From Terriglobia bacterium (GTDB lineage: Bacteria > Acidobacteriota > Terriglobia > 20CM-2-55-15): a DNA stretch of 64,000 nt. The stretch spans positions 64,001 through 128,000 of the forward strand of contig CBDCLE010000012.1 of the NCBI GenBank assembly GCA_965218585.1. The letters run 5' to 3'. The position numbers were made by a program, and so were the translations under genes. The notes beneath the pieces are model-generated. The model was not told where the DNA came from and did not search any database. It was given only the letters and a program-made list of their open reading frames with translations. This document shows positions 1,786-9,735 of the stretch, piece by piece (the stretch's first letter is position 1; every line of letters begins with the position of its first letter).

Positions 1786-2393
1786 ATGAAGCTTATTAGA
1801 GGCATTGCCATCGGTCTTCTGGTCGCACTGATCGTGACCCCACCCGCCTGGGCCCAGGACGATTACTTCACCGACCTGGAAATAGACGAGATTCGCGGTG
1901 CCCAACAGATCTCGAGACGCGTTGACGTTCTCCTTCAGATCGCCCAGGTTCGACTGGCCGAACTCGGACTGGCAGAACTGGAACAAGAGGTGGAGAGCAC
2001 GAGCGGAAACAGCCGCATCACCCGAACGATTGTGCGTATTCTGGCCCCCGCACAGCCGATGAACTGGACGCGGCCCAGGAAGAGCTGGAAACCTTTGAAA
2101 ACGATCTGTCCTACTTCACAAGGGCAGAGCTCCTCCGTGGCTATCACCAGGCGCTGGAAGAGACCATGGACAACATCGACGACGCCTACGAGCAAGGGCG
2201 CGGAGACATCCGCGAGCCTCTGAATTCGTTGAAGGACTTCATCGAAGACTCGATTCCTCTCCTCCTGCGATTTGAGGTGGAAAACGAATCGGAAGACATC
2301 GCTCTTGAGGACGCCATCACACAATCCGAACTGGCCCTTGAAGGTGCAGAGGCAGCCCTCGATACCGTTCCGAGAACCGAAAGAGATCAGTGA
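1786..2393 (+). CDS. Hypothetical secreted helical protein (one frameshift near 2050)
   Basis: Signal peptide ending AWA-QDD. ORFs 1786-2223 and 2166-2393 join. Confidence 0.6.
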
Positions 2394-3080
2394 CCGATCT
2401 CGAGTCCGCCTTCCGCAAGATTCATCGCGAACTCAAACCACGCACCCCGGTTCCAAAAATCCAGACAGAGTTCTTCCCTTCTGTTGGCGCGAATCATTCG
2501 GCCACACTTGACGAAGGTGTTCTCCGCGTGCGGGTCAGCGATCTCTTTGCGGACGCACCCGCCGAGATCCTCGAAACGGTGGCGATTATTCTGCTGTCCA
2601 AGCTCTACCGGAAGAAGATCGACGCTGAGTACCACACCGACTACCGTCGCTACACGATGAGTACGGACATGCTCGAGCGCGGCCGTCGGGTTCGATCTGA
2701 AAGAGGTCGGCCTACTCCGACAACTGCCCCTCAGGGAAAGTGCTACGACCTCGGCACCCTCTTTGACGAGATCAACATGGAGTGTTTCTCGGGCGGACTG
2801 CGGAAACCTCAGCTCCTCATGGACCCGGAGGGAGGCCCGGACCGTTCTGGGACGTTACGACTTTGACCAGGACGTGATTTTCATCAGCCGTTTTCTGGAC
2901 TCCGACACCATTCCAGCCCATGTTGTTCGATACATCCTGTTCCACGAGATGCTTCACGTGAAGCATGGAACCGAGATCAAGGGCCTTCGTGAGATCGTTC
3001 ACACGCCGGCTTTCCGACGCGAAGAAAAGCAATTCCCCAACTACCAGTTCGCCCGCGACTGGCTGGATCATAGTACGTAG
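2390..3080 (+). CDS. SprT-like/DUF45 zinc metalloprotease (frameshift near 2815)
   Basis: HEMLH zincin motif, LGRYD and downstream HTPAFR. ORFs 2390-2866 and 2763-3080 join. Confidence 0.75.
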
Positions 3081-3616
3081 ATCACGCAGATCCGTGTGAT
3101 CCATGTATCCACAGAAGGGCTTTGCCCGCAAATTCGTTCCTGCCCATAAATCATCAGTTCTGCCCGAAAAACCCCACGAGTCCTCTTTATGGCTCTATGC
3201 TGAAAAGCCGCATTGGAAGATGTGGGTGGAAAAATATTGTGAAAATCCTCGCATGCGCTCTCGCCCGCATCGCAGAAGTCTTGGATCGTATCGTAGATGT
3301 GATCCAACCTAGTGTTGAATGACAGATACACGCTGGTGATCTCTTGAAGATACTGTGAGTTCAAGTCCGCTCTTCCACTCACCATCTCCAACTTTGAAAG
3401 AGTGCCTGCCCCAGCGTAGGGGTCGTAATCGGAAGAGAATGCAAAGAGCAATCCCCACGCATCTGCATCTAACTCAGGGTTCCGACTAAAGTCCTGCTTG
3501 CCGGTTTCGAAATTGGTAGACGTGACCCAGTTCGTGCCCGATGGCAAACGCAAGCTCGCTTTCGAAATCCGCGAGTAGTTCCGCTAATGCCAAACTAATT
3601 TCGACCCCGTCTCTAG

Positions 3617-5084
3617 TACTACTGTATTACAAACGAAGCGGTCCACAGAACGGACAACGAGGAAGCTGCTGAATCAGGAAGCGGGCGATGCGAATGCGAA
3701 GCGTGGCAATCGAGCAGGGGTTATGTCGTTCGGGCCGGATCCGGGGTTCCGCGGGGTTTGAAGTGTTTGGGGAGTTTGGGGACGGATAGTCCAACATGCT
3801 CGACAAATGCAGAGGGGGAAAAACGGCTCCGCTCGGCGACCAGGAACCCATAAGAGGCAATACATAAGGTGCCATGATGGTGAAATCCACGCCAGCCGCG
3901 ACCTTCGTAGTGTCCCAGACCGAGTTCCTGCTTGAGTTCCTGATAGTCGCGTTCGATGATCCAGCGCTGTTTGGCCTGACCGGCCAGATCGGAAAGCGAG
4001 GTATGGGCCCCAAGAGTGGAGAGCCAGTACCGGATCGGTTCGGATGCGGTCTTGGGCCACTCGACCAACAACCACTCTTTCGGATGCGGCGAGTGGCGCT
4101 CGTGATCCAGATGAGCGGGACGAATGCGAACTGCGGCGAAACGGGAACGCAGGGTCTCGGAGGTGCCTTCGCGCCAGGAGACGTTCTTCCAACGCTGGGG
4201 AGACAACGAGAGGGCCAGTTGCTTGACCGAAACCGGTTGATGTTTCTTGTTGCGCTGCATGCGGGTCGGTGTCCGTCCGCGGCCGGTCAAGGATTTCGGC
4301 GGCAAGGGACCCTGGCCCGGTTTCCACACGGTCGTGGTGCCTTGCACCCCTAGGACGTAGCTAAGTCCGAGTTCGGTGATGCCGTGCCGGAACTTGTAGT
4401 TGTTGCCGTAGGCCGTATCGCCCAGAACCGGTGCCGGAGCAATGCCGTCATCGACGGCCTGCCGGATTTGTTCCAAAGCAATTTGAGGTTTAGTTTGAAA
4501 TCGAACGTCTTCGGGAATAGCGGCTTTGCTTCGACGTTCCGGATCCTTCGCCCAGGTCTCGGGGAGGTAGAGTCGCCATGCCACCGGCAAGCTGGATTTC
4601 GCTGTCGCCACCGACAGGCTCACCGCCACCCGGCAGTTCTCAGGTTTGCCGACCTGTCCACAGTATTGCCGGGCCACACCCACCGAGTGGGTCCCCTTTT
4701 TCACGAATCCGGTGTCGTCGACAATCCAGGCTTCAATCGGACCGTTGGCTTCCATCGCCCCCAGCGCGTACTGTCGAACTTCTGCCAACAGAGCCGCATC
4801 GTCCCAGGGCGCATCCGCGACCAGATGATGTAGCGACTGGTGCATTCGGCGTACATTATCCGGAGCCAATCGTGCAGCCATCGGCTCCACACTCTTACGT
4901 TTGATCGGCAGCAACAACCCGGTGCAGTACGACTTCAACGGTTCATGACGATCGGCGTGTCCTGCGGCCGACGCCAGGCGTTCCAAATAGGCCGCAAAAC
5001 GTTTTTCCTGAGTGCCTGGCGCCTTCGATTTGGCGCTCATGACCGGATGCTAACATAAAATAGACCGTTTGTAACATAGTAGTA
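3617..5084 (-). mobile_element. IS701-family insertion sequence, copy 1 (1468 bp)
   Basis: 19-bp TIRs tactact(gta/atg)ttacaaacg, flanks CTAG/ATAG, near-identical to 31227-32694. Confidence 0.92.
3721..5040 (-). CDS. IS701-family DDE transposase
   Basis: Motifs WIVDDTGFVKKGTHSVGVARQYCGQ, GDTAYG, RWIIERDYQELKQELGLGHYEGRGWRGFHHH. Confidence 0.95.
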   Translation of the reverse strand: MSAKSKAPGTQEKRFAAYLERLASAAGHADRHEPLKSYCTGLLLPIKRKSVEPMAARLAPDNVRRMHQSLHHLVADAPWDDAALLAEVRQYALGAMEANGPIEAWIVDDTGFVKKGTHSVGVARQYCGQVGKPENCRVAVSLSVATAKSSLPVAWRLYLPETWAKDPERRSKAAIPEDVRFQTKPQIALEQIRQAVDDGIAPAPVLGDTAYGNNYKFRHGITELGLSYVLGVQGTTTVWKPGQGPLPPKSLTGRGRTPTRMQRNKKHQPVSVKQLALSLSPQRWKNVSWREGTSETLRSRFAAVRIRPAHLDHERHSPHPKEWLLVEWPKTASEPIRYWLSTLGAHTSLSDLAGQAKQRWIIERDYQELKQELGLGHYEGRGWRGFHHHGTLCIASYGFLVAERSRFSPSAFVEHVGLSVPKLPKHFKPRGTPDPARTT

Positions 5085-6106
5085 ATAGTGGCGTAGGCGC
5101 TTATTTCCATCTCGGAAGTGACTGTGAGCTCGATGTCATTGGGATTTGGGATATTAGCGCGTACAGAATCATTGCTGACAAGCGAACGAAACACGTTCTC
5201 TATAACGTGCCGATGGGAAGCGGGCCGCGCCGCTGTACCGCTCGGCAGGGACGAATAGACGCCCCCATCGCCTCGAAGGGTCAAAGCGGAAACGTAGCCT
5301 TTTGAAGCTTGGATCAAAACGGACCCGGTGAAATCACCCGGCAAGTCGGGGATGATCTCGCTGAGCAATTTTGCGCTGTGTCCAAATCCAGGTAGTTGTA
5401 CAGATCCATGGAAGGGATTGCCACCGCCGTTCGGTAGGGCGGCAATTTGCATTGATTGTTCAAAGCTGTAGATATTAACTAAGGCAACCCCCAGATCCGG
5501 AGTAGCGGACGAAAAATATTGTGGTGCCGGCAATGATGCAGGAACACTGACCGAATAGAGTACGTTTCCGGCCTCATCCATGGAGCTGTAAGTCGCCGTG
5601 ACTTGAACGAGGTTCGATGCGTAGACGGTTGCCCATCCAACTTGAGGTACTGGACTCGTGCCTCGGCCTGGTGTACTCCAGCATTCCGAAGCGCGGGATC
5701 TCGAACTCGACTGCGTTCCAATACCCATCCTGATTATCGAAATCCAGATAGATATATTCTCCATCGTCTCCTCTGAACCAGACTGTTCCTGTCACGGCTG
5801 TGTGTTTGGATTAGCGATAGTGACTGTGGTGCGCCACCCGCCACCGTCAACGATTTGCGGGATGTAGGACCAAGCATTTGCCGACTCTGGAATGCCAAGG
5901 AAGAATGTTTGAGCCGAATTTGGGTCAGAGAGAGACACAGAAGGGCCAAAACGAGCATGAGCCGTTTCACTGGAGGTTCCTTTTTACCAGGGGAATCGGT
6001 GTTACCGGAACCATTGTTGGTCACCGGGTCGGTTGCCAGACAGAACGCACGCATGTGCGGAATCCCGCCTGTTTCCCGGTAGGTGTTGTATTCGGCGGGC
6101 AACCCG

Positions 6107-6526
6107 GTGATACAGGTCGCGCGAATGCTTCGGAAGGCCATTTCCGAACGAGCCAGAATTGACCGGAAAATTATCGTCATTCAGAACGATCTCGCCAAAC
6201 TTGCCCCACTCTGCGGTATGCCTGAAGCGCAACATCCGCTCGCTGAAATGGGCGTCACCGACGCAGTGCGAAGCATCGTCGGAGCAGCCCCTGAGAAAGG
6301 CGTTGCCACGGCTGGGGTCAGGAAGGTCTCGGCTATGTGTGGCGTGAGATTGCCAGAGTCTAACCCGTTGGCGGCGATTCAGACTGCTTTGAAGCGGCTT
6401 GAATCCAAGGGAGAAATAGAGAGGCGTGAGAGGAAATGGGTCTGGATCAGCAATACAAATCCACCCACGCAGCCGATACCGGAGTGGATGCTCAGGGATC
6501 CTGAAGAGGAAGAAACGGGGGGCTAG
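6107..6526 (+). CDS. Small coiled-coil plus winged-helix-like protein inside the transposon (putative regulator)
   Basis: Heptad-like N-terminus and C-terminal TDAVRSIV...NPLAAIQTALKRLESKGEIER wHTH-like pattern. Start is uncertain (6083, 6107 or 6125). Confidence 0.6.
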   Translation: MIQVARMLRKAISERARIDRKIIVIQNDLAKLAPLCGMPEAQHPLAEMGVTDAVRSIVGAAPEKGVATAGVRKVSAMCGVRLPESNPLAAIQTALKRLESKGEIERRERKWVWISNTNPPTQPIPEWMLRDPEEEETGG

Positions 6527-6594
6527 CTCAACAGGAGAGAGCACCCGCTTCGTAAGCGGGACCGTTGCGGGTTCGAAGCCCGCGCCCCCATCCA
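6517..6594 (+). tRNA. tRNA-like gene, anticodon CGT (nominally Thr), non-canonical
   Basis: GGGGGGC-TA-GCTC aacaggaga GAGC-A-CCCGC ttCGTaa GCGGG-accgtt-GCGGG TTCGAAG CCCGC-GCCCCCA-T-CCA. Full cloverleaf with a G1:A72 mismatch and a 6-nt variable region. Confidence 0.8.
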
Positions 6595-6720
6595 AACCGG
6601 CCCCGCAGGGTGGTGACACACCCTGCGGAAGCCATAACCTGCAAGGCGCGTGAAGCACCCGACAGGCAGCAGAACCTCATTGTACTGCCCACGGCCCTTG
6701 CAACGCAAAGGAGATCCACC
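6595..6720 (+). ncRNA. Putative structured RNA leader between the tRNA-like gene and the transposase
   Basis: 10-bp perfect hairpin 6603-6628. Stem tgcaagg/ccttgca (6640-6646 with 6696-6702) encloses cgtg/cacg and ggcag/ctgcc. RBS aaggag follows. Confidence 0.4.
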
Positions 6721-7959
6721 GTGGACGATTCCAGAAAACAACGCGCACTCGAAATCGCGGATAAGTTCAGGATCGCGTCCCAAGACGCATGTCGCTGGAT
6801 GGTTCCTTCGCAGTACGGTACTGGACGCTATTCGGTCACGATCCTCGGCCAAAACTCCCACTGCACCTGCCTGGACTGGGAGAAGCGCCGCCAGCCGTGC
6901 AAGCATGTCATGGCGGTCGAACTCTTCCGTGTGAACAGTGAGCGGATAGGAGACGCCCCGAAGGTCACAGAGGCGATCTATCACACGCCACGACCAACCT
7001 ACAAACAGGACTGGACGGCCTACAACGCAGCGCAAACCAACGAGAAGGACGAGTTTCAGATGCTTCTCTGGGGTTTGTGTCAAGGGCTGAAGCAGCCGAA
7101 GCGGACAGCCGCGGACGACCGGCGCTGCCGATTTCCGATTCGGTATTTGCAGCAGCGTTCAAGGTGTACTCCACAGTTTCCGGGCGCCGGTTCATGAGCG
7201 ACCTTCGGAACGCCAAAGCGTCGGGGGTTTCTTAACCAGCTTCCCCACTACAACTCGATCTTCGACTTGATGGACAACCCCGGATTGACTCAGATTCTTG
7301 AGAACCTGATTACGGAGTCGAGTCTTCCACTGAAATCGGTTGAGCGAGATTTCGCCGTGGATTCGTCCGGATTCTCCACCTGCCGATTCGAGCGGTGGTT
7401 CGATCACAAGCACGGCGGCGATAGGTTCAAGCGAAACTGGGTGAAGGTCCACATCATGTGCGGCGTCAAAACCAACATCGTTACCGCCGTCGAGATCCGT
7501 GGCCGCGAGGCCCACGATGCGCCGTTGCTGCCAGACATGCTGGAATCTACGGCTAAGAACTTCACGATGCACGAGGTTTCCGCCGACAAAGGCTACCTGA
7601 GCGTGAACAACGTGAAGAAGATCGTCGGTTCTGGAGCCGCTCCGTTCATCGCGCTCAAGACCAACAGCCAGCCGCAAACGTCGAGCAAGGTCTGGAATGA
7701 CATGTACTACTACTTCCAGTTGAAGCGAGACGAGTTTCTGGAGCACTACCACAAGCGCTCGAACGTCGAAACCACCTTCCACATGATTAAGTCGAAATTC
7801 AGAGACTCGCTGCGGTCAAAGACCGACCGCGCCCTGGTCAACGAAGCATTGTGTAAGATTCTTTGTCACAATCTTGTAGTCCTGGTTCATGAAGCTCACG
7901 AGCTGGGGGTCGAGCCGATTTTCTGGGCAGAAACCCCGGCTGCCCGAATAAATGCCTGA
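6721..7959 (+). CDS. Transposase: N-terminal SWIM zinc finger plus DDE (IS4/IS5-type) domain, with two compensating indels
   Basis: CTCLDWEKRRQPCKH (SWIM) and catalytic FAVDSSGF / SADKGY / RSNVETTF. The frame shifts near 7105 and again at the G5 run at 7223-7227. Confidence 0.88.
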
Positions 7960-8193
7960 CTTATTTAGTTTTCGGGCAAAGCCCCACAGAAGCTGTGGAA
8001 AAGCCTGTGGAAAGGTCCCTGCTCCCCTTGCCTAAGCACACCTAAAGCTATCGCTTATAGCGTTTTGCACCTTTTCCTGTCACCGGCGTCACTGTTGAAA
8101 AATTCGGTAATTTTTTCGATAGAGGGAAAAATCTGCGTAGGACAGAAAAGACCAATGCAGAGACGCGGAGACGCAGAGGGAAGAAAAACCTAG

Positions 8194-9735
8194 GAGTCTG
8201 CGCGGCAGAAGGACCGAAATTGGGCGGGAATGGATGGAAGATAGGGCATGCCACGAACTTACCGAGCCTATATTCCAGAACAGAGCCTGCTGATGCCACC
8301 GTCGCTGAGCGATTGGCTGGCCGAAGATCACCTGTCGTACTTCATATCGGATGCTGTGGACGCGATGGATTTGAGCGGGTTCGAACAGAGGCATGGAACT
8401 GACGGGCCTGGCAATCAGGCCTTCGATCCGCGGATGATGGTGAAGGTGATGATCTATGGGTACGGGACCGGAGTGTTTTCATCCAGGAAGATCGCAGCGA
8501 AGTTGAGAGAAGATGTGGCGTTCCGGATGTTGGGAGCCGAGAACTTTCCCGCGCACCGAACGATCTCGGATTTTCGCAAACTGCATCTTGAGGAGTTCGG
8601 GAAGCTGTTTGTGCAAGTGGTGATGATGGCGCGAGAAGCGGGTTTGGTGAAGATGGGGACGGTAGCGGTGGACGGAACCAAGATGCGGGCGAATGCGAGC
8701 AAACGCAAAGCGATGAGCTATCAACGCATGAAGAAGCAGGAGACCGAGTTGGGTGAGCAGATTCGGGATCTGTTGAACCGGGCGACCGCGACCGATGAGG
8801 ACGAAGACCAGCGTTACGGCAAGGACCGGCGCGGAGACGAACTACCCGACGGGTTGGCGACCCGTAAGAAGCGTCTGGCCACGATCCAGGCGGCGATGAA
8901 GCGACTCGAGGAACGTCAGATGGCTGCGGACCAGGAAGCCGGACGGAAACCGGGAGACGACGAACCGGGAAGCGGAAAGAAGGGCAAGCCATTCAAACGC
9001 CCCATGGGCGAGCCCAAGCCCAAGGCCCAGGAGAACTTCACCGATCCAGAAAGCCGGATCATGAAGACCTCCACGGAAGGGTTCCAGCAATGTTACAACG
9101 CGCAGGCGATGGTGGATTCCGAGGCCCGGATCATCGTGGCGACCACGGTGAGCGACAATGCGTCGGATGTGGGGCAGTTGGAGCCGACTCTGGATGCGGT
9201 GAACAACAACCTGGGAGAGTCTCCAGGCCGCGTGCTCGCTGATGCGGGGTATCGATCCGAGTCGAATCTGGGGATGTTAGAACAACGCCAAATTGATGGG
9301 TATGTCGCCATGGGGCGGGAGAAGGACCTGGACGATGCCCCCCTCCCGCCACAAGATACCGCGCTTGGTCGGATGACGAGAAAAATGAAATCCCCGTCTG
9401 GGCGTGATCGCTACCGGGCCAGAAAGCACATTGGTGAACCGCCCTTCGGGTGGATCAAATCGGTGCTCGGATTCCGACAGTTCAGTCTGCGAGGTTTGGA
9501 CAAGGTGACCTGTGAGTGGAACCTGGTGACTCTAGCAGTGAACTTACGACGGATGAACGGGAAGATCGAATGGGCCTAATCCGGAAAACCGGGACCGCCA
9601 CCCTTATCACACGGCTTACTACTGGAGTCCGCACCGGTCTGAGTTCATCATAACGGCAGAATCGGTCCGGTCGCCTCCGACAACACGATCAAATCCCAAT
9701 AAATCCAGGTTCTTTCCGCTCTGCCGCGCAGACTC
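8194..9735 (+). mobile_element. IS1182-family insertion sequence (1542 bp)
   Basis: 16-bp TIR gagtctgcgcggcaga and CTAG duplication at 8190-8193 / 9736-9739. Confidence 0.92.
8248..9579 (+). CDS. IS1182-family transposase
   Basis: Motifs LMPPSLSDWLAEDHL, FSSRKIA, VAVDGTKMRANAS, NFTDPESRIM, ADAGYRS, EPPFGWIK..GFRQFSLRG. Confidence 0.95.
   Translation: MPRTYRAYIPEQSLLMPPSLSDWLAEDHLSYFISDAVDAMDLSGFEQRHGTDGPGNQAFDPRMMVKVMIYGYGTGVFSSRKIAAKLREDVAFRMLGAENFPAHRTISDFRKLHLEEFGKLFVQVVMMAREAGLVKMGTVAVDGTKMRANASKRKAMSYQRMKKQETELGEQIRDLLNRATATDEDEDQRYGKDRRGDELPDGLATRKKRLATIQAAMKRLEERQMAADQEAGRKPGDDEPGSGKKGKPFKRPMGEPKPKAQENFTDPESRIMKTSTEGFQQCYNAQAMVDSEARIIVATTVSDNASDVGQLEPTLDAVNNNLGESPGRVLADAGYRSESNLGMLEQRQIDGYVAMGREKDLDDAPLPPQDTALGRMTRKMKSPSGRDRYRARKHIGEPPFGWIKSVLGFRQFSLRGLDKVTCEWNLVTLAVNLRRMNGKIEWA

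Follow-up and report, generated by a model that had tools for sequence, protein, structure and literature searches.

What kind of element carries a tRNA gene directly in front of its transposase, and does this RNA take part in transposition? The question is raised by a 64,000-nucleotide stretch of a Terriglobia bacterium genome (contig CBDCLE010000012.1, positions 64,001 to 128,000; the whole stretch is hereafter called the window), in which an open reading frame (ORF) resembling a winged helix-turn-helix (wHTH) protein, a tRNA, a structured leader and a transposase follow one another on the + strand between two inverted repeats. A sequence-only reading had described this locus as a single-transposase cargo transposon and had assigned it to an undescribed class of RNA-containing transporter elements. 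The locus as a whole is best explained, and we state this with high confidence, as a genuine non-composite DDE transposon, namely a transporter insertion sequence (IS), of a lineage distantly related to IS903, with its module, its cargo and a target site that has been used repeatedly. The RNA of the element is a carried tRNA gene, and no evidence was found that it guides transposition.

Ends, target duplication and empty site

The element extends from 3118 to 7983 (4866 bp, or ~3.39 kb without a nested IS701-family IS). Its left terminal inverted repeat of 15 bp (IRL), GGCTTTGCCCGCAAA (3118-3132), and the reverse complement of its right repeat (IRR), GGCTTTGCCCGAAAA (7969-7983), match at 14 of 15 positions, and a perfect 9-bp duplication, CCACAGAAG, flanks the element (Table 1). 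Among the 3630 pairs of identical 9-mers 200-8000 bp apart in the window, this is the only one that directly encloses an inverted repeat matching at 14/15 or better, and the arrangement did not appear in any of 20 mononucleotide shuffles. Subterminal TGCCC repeats are located at +5, +23 and +43 of the left end (3122, 3140 and 3160) and at +5 and +54 of the right end, with an inverted copy between the latter two at ~7940.

Seven related genomes have the SprT-like gene that ends at 3080 in the window and, downstream of it, a single 9-mer that runs straight into the right flank known from the window. These are all four other genomes of the genus (G001-G004) and three from other genera of the same family (G006, G013 and G016). 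The 9-mer at the empty site is exactly CCACAGAAG in G003, G013 and G016 and a one-base variant in G001, G002, G004 and G006, and the 30-mer that it opens is 93-100% conserved across genera. The stretch 3118..7983 is a real, recently inserted transposon. Two joints in read contigs, 2972->7984 (run X5) and 3025->8055 (run X1), were not counted as empty sites, their side length being 30 and the intervening letters unknown.

The sequence-only reading had given the same ends, duplication, length and subterminal repeats, all of which were recovered on rechecking, and the spacing of the repeats recurs in relatives. It had also proposed to look for an empty site, for ends shared among homologues and for co-occurrence of tRNA-like genes; the first has just been described, and the other two were found as well (see below).

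Elements of the IS903 group are ~1 kb long and transposase-only, and an ordinary short IS might be imagined here beside unrelated genes, with a chance match taken for the distal left end. The probability of such an accident is next to nil: no second IRL-like sequence lies inside the element, the left end has the +5, +23 and +43 pattern of the family, the empty sites lack everything between the two 9-mers, and no full-length transposase-only element occurs among the 24 delimited ones.

The transposase and its family

The transposase, read in frame 1 from GTG at 6721, combines a SWIM domain (PF04434, 3.3e-8) with DDE_Tnp_1 (PF01609, 2.7e-27) in Pfam searches. The window copy is out of frame between about 7107 and 7223; another assembly has an intact 412-aa form (P0002), which is identical outside the shifted stretch. 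The SWIM ligands C48, C50, C60 and H62, the DDE triad D214, D289 and E350, and likewise Y343-R346-E350-K357 (the Y-x2-R-x3-E-x6-K signature) are invariant in all 21 sequences of an alignment.

An exhaustive search of 50%-identity representatives yielded 982 homologues at E<=1e-30 and 3051 at E<=1e-10, and among 90% clusters at least 7995 family members were found at E<=1e-5 (7995 of the 8000 scored candidates). The four members with an NCBI or JGI name are all called only 'transposase'. The best NCBIfam model is transpos_IS5_2, which scores 112 bits against a cut-off of 140 and is matched only at model positions 100-288 of 289. The closest annotated plasmid genes are IS903-group IS5 elements (ISVa2, ISSpu16) at 25-28% identity, and no close relative was found among PLSDB plasmids, every match being below 60% identity. 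As judged from these comparisons, the family is apparently an unclassified, large lineage distantly related to IS903. This very large transposon lineage, which current models leave unclassified and which spans Acidobacteriota, Planctomycetota, Pseudomonadota and Verrucomicrobiota, is now delimited by ends, duplications and an empty site. In species-representative genomes 557 of 571 candidate stretches were confirmed; the locus counts below use the best 80 of these 557, to which four further regions from relatives of the window's genome were added.

Anatomy of related elements

Twenty-four elements of 1070-6561 bp have been delimited by GGCTTTGC ends and perfect 9-bp duplications: the window element, nine from the 80 loci by a scan for exact duplications, five in the relatives' loci, and nine by the triple-repeat signature of the left end. 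A tenth triple-repeat element sits at a contig edge (L017), where the left flank shows 8 of the 9 duplication letters. The left-end signature consists of the motif (T/C)TGC(C/A)C, also written (T/C)TGCCCAAAA, at +5, +23 and +43, and in the right end it stands at +5 and +54, the two being separated by an inverted copy. Of 14 other elements examined, 8 share the left pattern with the window element (L012 has only +5 and +23) and 7 share the right one (L022 has +54 only). End sequences totalling 3600 nt have 64 copies of the motif and 100,398 nt of interior have 179, an enrichment of about tenfold. Because the terminal motif is present in several copies and the ends are asymmetric, several transposase-binding sites per end are probable. 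In acidobacterial elements, found via the triple-repeat signature, the right end lies 0.57-1.35 kb downstream of the transposase.

All full-length delimited elements (2.1-6.6 kb) carry passenger genes, and none is transposase-only; the 1070-bp L100 is a deletion derivative that holds transposase residues 135-402. Cargo flanks the transposase on either side or on both. Few of the 93 passenger ORFs in 23 elements match Pfam: N6_Mtase is found in two and HTH_3 in three, and the single matches include DUF6471, DUF3800, DUF4325, HATPase_c_2, Response_reg and a PHD-type antitoxin. In an all-against-all BLAST comparison of the 93, few families were common to different elements, and no ATPase or target selector of the Mu or Tn7 type turned up among the scanned passenger ORFs. 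The full-length delimited members thus all move extra genes, including restriction-modification methylases, defence-like pairs and regulators.

Tandem elements on one 9-mer are found in L098 (7493-16216), L099 (1685-4737; the same record as L010) and L073 (6150-6258), with the 9-mers GAATCCGCT, GGTATGCGG and CATAGCACA. A new insertion recreates the target beside an existing end, and head-to-tail arrays on the same 9-mer are the result. Loss of the inner ends of such a tandem pair is a plausible route to new cargo. The target of the L099 array (4698-4740) is a short GGTATGC tandem repeat, so that the frame of the duplication is ambiguous there. At 11193-11619 of L097, in genome G026, cargo to the right of the transposase includes a DUF1508 (YegP-like) ORF (1.1e-15); the last codons of this transposase (FWTETP) still match an inner right-end repeat, as if a second right end had been captured.

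The tRNA slot

The sequence-only reading had spoken of a tRNA-like RNA. A structured RNA is indeed present, but it passes as a tRNA gene: the Rfam tRNA model (RF00005) scores 47.5 bits (E 5.8e-8; gathering score 29), and ARAGORN calls it Thr(CGU). With one extra C after 6584, as seen in contigs of runs X1, X3 and X5, the acceptor stem (GGGGGGC/GCCCCCC) pairs perfectly. Of the genome's 51 tRNAs, one is a different, host-like tRNA-Thr(CGU) on contig C24, and the copy in the element is therefore redundant and foreign-looking.

This arrangement recurs. With ARAGORN, 12 of the 80 loci proved to have a co-oriented tRNA that begins or ends 148-500 nt before the transposase. A covariance model built from 16 upstream tRNAs, in whose consensus 14 of the 15 pairs vary on both sides, found one within 700 nt in 16 of the 80 loci and in two of the four relatives' loci. 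Of the extra candidates from relaxed ARAGORN settings (-ps80), L027 and L068 were confirmed by this model; L016, L033, L047, L052, L058 and L074 were not and were dropped. The tRNA lies inside the ends in all delimited tRNA-bearing elements (window, L097, L098b, L018, L026, L027, L038, L073 and L084) and also in L017 at its contig edge. In a transposase tree, all 16 tRNA-bearing rows fall into one clade of 51 rows (support 94), with none among the 31 rows outside, and in the 18-row subclade of the window 11 rows have a tRNA. Ordinary-looking tRNAs also occur just downstream of the transposase on the opposite strand in L007 (Ser-CGA, 2819-2908, minus) and L030 (Asp-GUC, 8388-8476, minus).

The position is kept, and its content changes. 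The window has a 78-nt Thr-CGU tRNA, G026 an 88-nt UAU tRNA with a long variable arm, G73 and CCA, and G001 a UAC tRNA. The G026 transposase is 86% identical to that of the window and yet is accompanied by a different tRNA, and the transposase regions of L073 and L083 are 91% identical in nucleotides while their tRNAs (GUC and CCA anticodons) are unrelated. Acceptor stems of 9 bp with T stems of 3-4 bp are found in L017, L018 and L029 (a stem script gave 9/4 for L017 and L029 with one pair counted twice, L017 being 9/3 by eye, and 9/3 for L018). The L036 tRNA is of the 8/4 type with a GGU anticodon, and L031 and L038 have two tRNAs in tandem. Many slot tRNAs resemble tRNA-Ser in their identity marks, with a long variable arm and G73, and have anticodons for Ile, Val, Cys or Leu.

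As described in passages of PMC5389517, an allo-tRNA has a 12-bp acceptor branch (8/4 or 9/3) and a long variable arm, and tRNAs of the 9/3 and 8/4 types with UAU, GCA and GGU anticodons, as well as tandem pairs, are found on Acidobacteriota contigs. By their predicted folds, the irregular tRNAs of the slot are what Mukai et al. (2017) described as allo-tRNAs and 'irregular tRNA polycistrons'. The same passages place irregular tRNAs near toxin-antitoxin genes, note one that overlaps 'a transposon-related protein', and suggest a link to transposable elements, which a 2020 review repeats for allo-tRNAs (PMC7609411). A link between odd tRNAs and a transposon-related protein had thus been noted before. 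In the relevant passages of both articles no transposase is named and no element is defined, and a literature search yielded nothing joining allo-tRNA with transposase. Allo-tRNAs and other irregular tRNAs, whose biological role has been open since 2017, thereby gain a concrete genomic home, and a fixed slot between regulator and transposase makes a role for allo-tRNAs testable.

What does the tRNA do for the element? It might be needed for translating the element's own genes, as a suppressor or rare-codon tRNA that recodes the transposase. The Ser-like slot tRNAs with Ile, Val, Cys and Leu anticodons would suit this, and some allo-tRNAs decode in E. coli, according to a passage of PMC5389517. 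The codon counts speak strongly against it: the cognate codon is absent from the transposase in two of 12 loci (TTA in L026 and L038), the cognate codons of L014 and L029 occur once each, and L097, counted apart, has one ATA. In addition, the window tRNA reads ACG as Thr like the host copy, and intact transposases have no in-frame stop. Recoding of the transposase by its own tRNA was rejected on these counts, and self-recoding is very improbable. It is somewhat more probable than otherwise that the element has a dedicated 'tRNA slot' whose occupant is a passenger, be it selfish or useful. In acidobacterial relatives 9/3 allo-tRNAs and other irregular tRNAs, Ser-like in their identity marks and with non-Ser anticodons, fill this slot.

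Regulator ORF and structured leader

The order wHTH ORF, tRNA, structured leader and transposase, all on the + strand, recurs in relatives as a conserved module. Homologues of the ORF at 6083-6526 occupy the same position in L097, L098, L014, L017, L027, L048 and L068. The ORF has no Pfam or NCBIfam match, and the ESM Atlas returned unnamed Acidobacteriota clusters only, with HARE-HTH and AbiEi_4 as leads below 0.9. The L097 homologue, whose identity to the window ORF is 25%, was modelled with AlphaFold from an alignment of eight sequences; the model has a predicted local distance difference test score (pLDDT) of 79.2 and consists of a 50-residue helix, helices 63-73, 81-90 and 101-114, and a beta hairpin of strands 118-123 and 126-131. 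Foldseek matches it weakly (E 1e-3 to 4e-2) to the winged helices of Fur, Zur, PerR, MecI, PadR and H1. The predicted fold of the ORF product is thus a winged helix-turn-helix (H-H-H and a beta-hairpin wing), as had been proposed from the sequence, and the protein is a putative DNA binder. It may equally well be or not be the element's own regulator or an end-binding accessory protein.

In other members a ~60-aa zinc-ribbon ORF (C-x2-C...HEW-PR...CP-x-C-KSP-W) is followed by a palindromic operator-like site, TTGTCAAGG...CCTTGACAA. A check of 82 loci, over up to 600 nt before the transposase, found the zinc-ribbon motif in 23 (L014, L017, L018, L026, L027, L029, L038 and 16 others), with a co-occurring tRNA in six. 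This ORF seems to take the regulator's place in many members.

The leader between tRNA and transposase has a minimum free energy of -55.1 kcal/mol (z = -3.53), and none of 200 shuffles was equally stable. In four aligned leaders, 9 of 28 pairs have changes on both sides, by which the hairpin after the tRNA keeps its pairing. Nucleotide homology of the window to L097 and L098b begins at 6636, just past the tRNA and its hairpin, and the left part of the element has therefore been exchanged as a block. No promoter- or terminator-like site was found on the + strand between ORF, tRNA and transposase in the window and L097 (sigma-70-type consensus only), which is a weak argument for a single transcript.

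From these features a mode of expression may be proposed. The ORF, the tRNA and the transposase would be transcribed together, and RNase P and RNase Z would excise the tRNA. In the remaining transposase mRNA the ribosome-binding site and the GUG start would be folded away in the leader. The transposase, acting on several sites per end, would make the staggered 9-bp cuts. That co-transcription, tRNA excision and the folded leader keep translation of the transposase low and uncoupled from read-through is about an even chance. A bolder version, in which the tRNA slot spreads irregular tRNAs, including 9/3 allo-tRNAs, among soil bacteria and tRNA excision is the switch of transposase expression, is doubtful. 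If it were true, the element would alter decoding in its host and tie its mobility to tRNA processing, and the so far unexplained allo-tRNAs would have a natural role.

Target choice and RNA guidance

The same site has been used more than once, with independent insertions in at least two further genomes. In G026, which belongs to another genus, a 2801-bp element lies at the orthologous site downstream of the SprT-like orthologue and is flanked by the duplication GCACAGTAA. The 9-mers of the window and G026 differ at 3 of 9 positions while the two copies agree within each genome, and the flanks are ~72% identical versus 83% for the transposase part; the different duplications and the lower identity of the flanks indicate two separate insertions. 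In one contig of run X5 (record 16) the right end of the element is joined to the SprT-side flank; its 229 nt of flank differ at three positions and its 1609 nt of element at 105. The same join is found in run X6 (record 23). An element in the opposite orientation at the same site is therefore a third insertion event.

A structured RNA directly upstream of the transposase, one 9-bp site used three times independently, and tandem elements on single 9-mers in L098, L099/L010 and L073 might suggest that the SWIM transposase is led to its target by a bound RNA, either the tRNA-like one or the leader, in the manner of bridge or omega RNAs. The comparisons make such RNA-guided or RNA-dependent transposition highly unlikely. 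In all eight elements compared, exact matches of the rebuilt 39-nt target to the tRNA and leader reach no more than 6-7 nt, and 105-198 of 200 shuffled targets did equally well, which is the chance level. The window and G026 elements share a site while having unrelated tRNAs; the L098b element, whose leader and transposase are 88.7% identical, has a different 9-mer; and most loci (64 of 80) have no tRNA.

The target site itself is palindromic (CCACAG-AAG-CTGTGG). In 22 elements, with 8 nt taken on each side of the duplication, 68 of 176 positions are complementary versus ~44 expected; at least 5 of 8 are complementary in L100, L015, L033, L035 and L073, the right flank of L073 being the end of its tandem neighbour. 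A table in PMC2577343 gives for IS903, whose target is read by protein, a motif that is palindromic around the 9-bp duplication, so the palindromic flank trend also speaks against guidance by RNA. We read the hot spot as a target preference of a protein. The RNA of the element is a tRNA gene carried inside the ends, and no pairing of RNA and target above chance was seen. Multi-site ends and repeated use of one 9-bp site are unusual for an IS5-like element, and they raise the question of what the SWIM domain does.

Assembly errors and the state of the element

Short-read contigs from four public runs were compared over the region, X1 being the best of them and X6 an RNA run. Eight single-base indels in ~5 kb separate the assembly from X1, each shown by all covering X1 contigs. 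In the transposase, contigs of X1 and X5 have an added G after 7107 and one base less at 7223; in the passenger gene there are five single-base differences in X1 (3230, 3505, 5667, 5795 and 5916); and in the tRNA there is the extra C mentioned above. Since the X1 and X5 contigs are free of the frameshifts, these are most likely assembly errors, or at least absent in close relatives. Assembly error probably also explains the cargo frameshifts and the tRNA mismatch G1-A72, and other frameshifts in this genome should be read with care. The SprT-like gene upstream also looks frameshifted (2390-2866 and 2763-3080 in two frames); its G026 orthologue is a single ORF of 242 aa.

Several observations weigh against an intact, active element with the module described here. 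As deposited, the transposase is in two pieces, P0123 (195 aa) and P0124 (229 aa). Its genome (26 contigs) has one copy of the element, so that activity in the present host is putative. Contigs of the RNA run X6 cover 6017-6496 and one junction, with no cover of 6520-7786, where the tRNA and the transposase lie. A hidden Markov model of the wHTH ORF found its eight seed sequences alone among all loci, and other family members carry a divergent zinc-ribbon or HTH ORF instead. The absence of a tRNA from 64 of the 80 loci means that it is not needed for transposition in general, and the tree of 82 transposases comes from a quick search with a midpoint root.

Could the element then be an inactive relic, whose module and cargo are decaying and whose arrangement has no present function in this genome? 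Its single copy, its cargo broken by IS701, the split transposase as deposited, and a degenerate copy in G001 (L098b) with a stop in the transposase all point that way. Against this stand the perfect duplication and the 14/15 repeats, the X1 and X5 contigs free of frameshifts, and the intact 412-aa protein in another assembly; moreover, related copies at the same site in the other orientation imply that the lineage has recently been mobile. A relic is accordingly improbable, and a genuine transposon of a mobile lineage is preferred.

Passenger gene, nested insertion sequence and neighbourhood

The features of the element are collected in Table 1.

Table 1. Features of the transposon and its target duplication, in window coordinates
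Feature	Position	Strand	Remarks
Left copy of target duplication, CCACAGAAG	3109..3117	.	Single copy at the empty sites of relatives
Left end: IRL and direct subterminal motif copies at +23 and +43	3118..3170	+	
Passenger gene, secreted protein, C-terminal HELGH...ELDADAWG (weakly M48-like)	3190..5958	-	Split by IS701; 5 assembly indels
IS701-family IS (transposase 3721-5040, -)	3613..~5084-5088	-	Pfam DDE_5 4e-85; NCBIfam transpos_IS701 434.7 bits, cut-off 150
Structured repeat upstream of passenger start, ~100 nt	6003..6111	-	Weak Rfam sRNA-Xcc1, 32.7 bits vs 53
ORF, 147 aa, predicted coiled coil and winged helix-turn-helix	6083..6526	+	Start codon uncertain; last 10 nt overlap tRNA
tRNA-Thr(CGU), 78 nt, 7/5 cloverleaf, short variable arm	6517..6594	+	ARAGORN, Rfam
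Structured leader	6595..6720	+	Hairpin directly 3' of tRNA; 3' helix CCACGG/CCGUGG encloses GUG start
Transposase, N-terminal SWIM zinc finger and C-terminal DDE_Tnp_1	6721..7959	+	Pfam
Right end: IRR, +54 copy, inverted copy at ~7940	7925..7983	-	Overlaps last transposase codons
Right copy of target duplication, CCACAGAAG	7984..7992	.	First 9 nt of the 30-mer conserved across genera

The passenger gene is interrupted by the nested IS. When the five X1 differences are applied and IS701 is removed as in X1 record 2 (a skip from 3617 to 5092), the pieces 5958..5089 and 3612..3190 join in silico into one ORF of ~432 aa from the signal-peptide Met; record 2 is a related copy, with 40 differing letters in 376. 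The protein has a signal peptide, a domain without matches and the C-terminal HELGH...ELDADAWG. Searches of the long cargo pieces in Pfam and NCBIfam gave no match. The 35-aa HELGH piece, a fragment only of a broken gene, matches Peptidase_M48 with E=0.0025 and 18.1 bits, below the cut-off of 20.3. A signal peptide and the HELGH and ELDADA motifs are present, and the Pfam score falls short of the threshold; the divergent secreted M48 peptidase proposed earlier is thus plausible. The nested IS701 is ~1472-1475 bp long and has 22 other full-length copies in the genome at 99.4% identity or more.

Copies of the structured repeat at 6003-6111 are found in genome G000 at C2:144859-144971, C2:291400-291452, C2:348253-348305, C2:535489-535541 and C12:141915-141967. 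Its outer helix, CACCGGGTTGCC...GGCAACCGACCCGGTG, still pairs in other copies despite sequence changes, and a signal-peptide-like ORF lies just downstream of the window copy and of four of the five others. Read depth is raised at 5977-6157 in all four runs. The repeat is a probable 5' leader, outside the transposition machinery, and it may be an undescribed one.

The SprT/YgjP-like gene at 2390-3080, also metallopeptidase-like, is not part of the element. An IS1182-family IS at 8189-~9700 (transposase 8248-9579; NCBIfam 362.5 bits, cut-off 270) sits about 200 bp beyond the right end, and its first 60 nt are found at 100% identity on at least nine other contigs of the genome and also in congeners. 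The intergenic stretch between, 7984-8188, is 75-79% conserved over ~155-206 nt across genera, and its first 30 nt at 93-100%; it has no Rfam match at E<=1, and in G026 hflX converges on it. It contains three words that resemble the DnaA-box consensus. A replication origin as the target was considered and rejected: the cumulative GC skew falls steadily on C12 without a turn, and only three boxes with at most one mismatch lie in 9 kb.

Comparison with known systems

IS903 elements have GGCTTTG termini and a 9-bp duplication, are ~1 kb in length and are transposase-only. The window element and the 23 other delimited elements share the termini and the duplication with them, and the transposase shares DDE_Tnp_1 with the Y-R-E-K signature and has transpos_IS5_2 as its best model; the palindromic target of IS903 in the table of PMC2577343 has a counterpart in the modest palindromic trend found here. 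On the other hand, identity is only 25-28%, the IS5-model score is below its cut-off, and the protein has 412 aa with an N-terminal SWIM domain; the elements have three spaced end repeats, 2.1-6.6 kb of length, passenger genes and a tRNA slot. The element behaves like an IS903-type transposon, and yet it departs from two features that define the group, size and curated score.

Transporter IS (tIS) is the ISfinder term for an IS that carries passenger genes. The window element fits this term, having one transposase, terminal inverted repeats, a duplication and passenger genes between the repeats. What it differs in is that cargo is the rule of the lineage and is carried on either side of the transposase, and that one clade has the module of regulator, tRNA and leader. 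Where the sequence-only reading saw an undescribed class, the element belongs to a divergent branch of IS5/IS903-like elements and agrees with the idea of a transporter IS. Literature searches did not find the architecture of this element described, and none of the papers listed mentions a SWIM zinc finger.

The allo-tRNA loci in the passages of PMC5389517 are resembled by the stem types of L017, L018, L029 and L036 and by the tandems of L031 and L038. The window tRNA, in contrast, has the usual 7/5 form of a Thr(CGU) tRNA and a variable region of 5 nt, and is not of the allo-tRNA type. Mu and Tn7 have several transposase-binding sites per end. The ends described here are similar in being asymmetric and in having the terminal motif three times at intervals, with one right-end copy inverted, whereas the catalytic domain is IS4/IS5-like. 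The transposases of eukaryotic Mutator-like elements (MULEs) combine a SWIM finger with a DDE transposase of an IS256-like catalytic family. By this description the combination of domains is alike, and plant Mu also makes a 9-bp duplication (table in PMC2577343); the catalytic family differs, and the SWIM finger is N-terminal here. Bridge RNA, omega RNA and CRISPR-associated transposon (CAST) systems differ from these elements, in which no RNA-target complementarity above chance was seen (8 of 8 elements). What is new on an IS903-type plan is the SWIM domain, the multi-site ends, cargo in every full-length delimited member and the tRNA slot.

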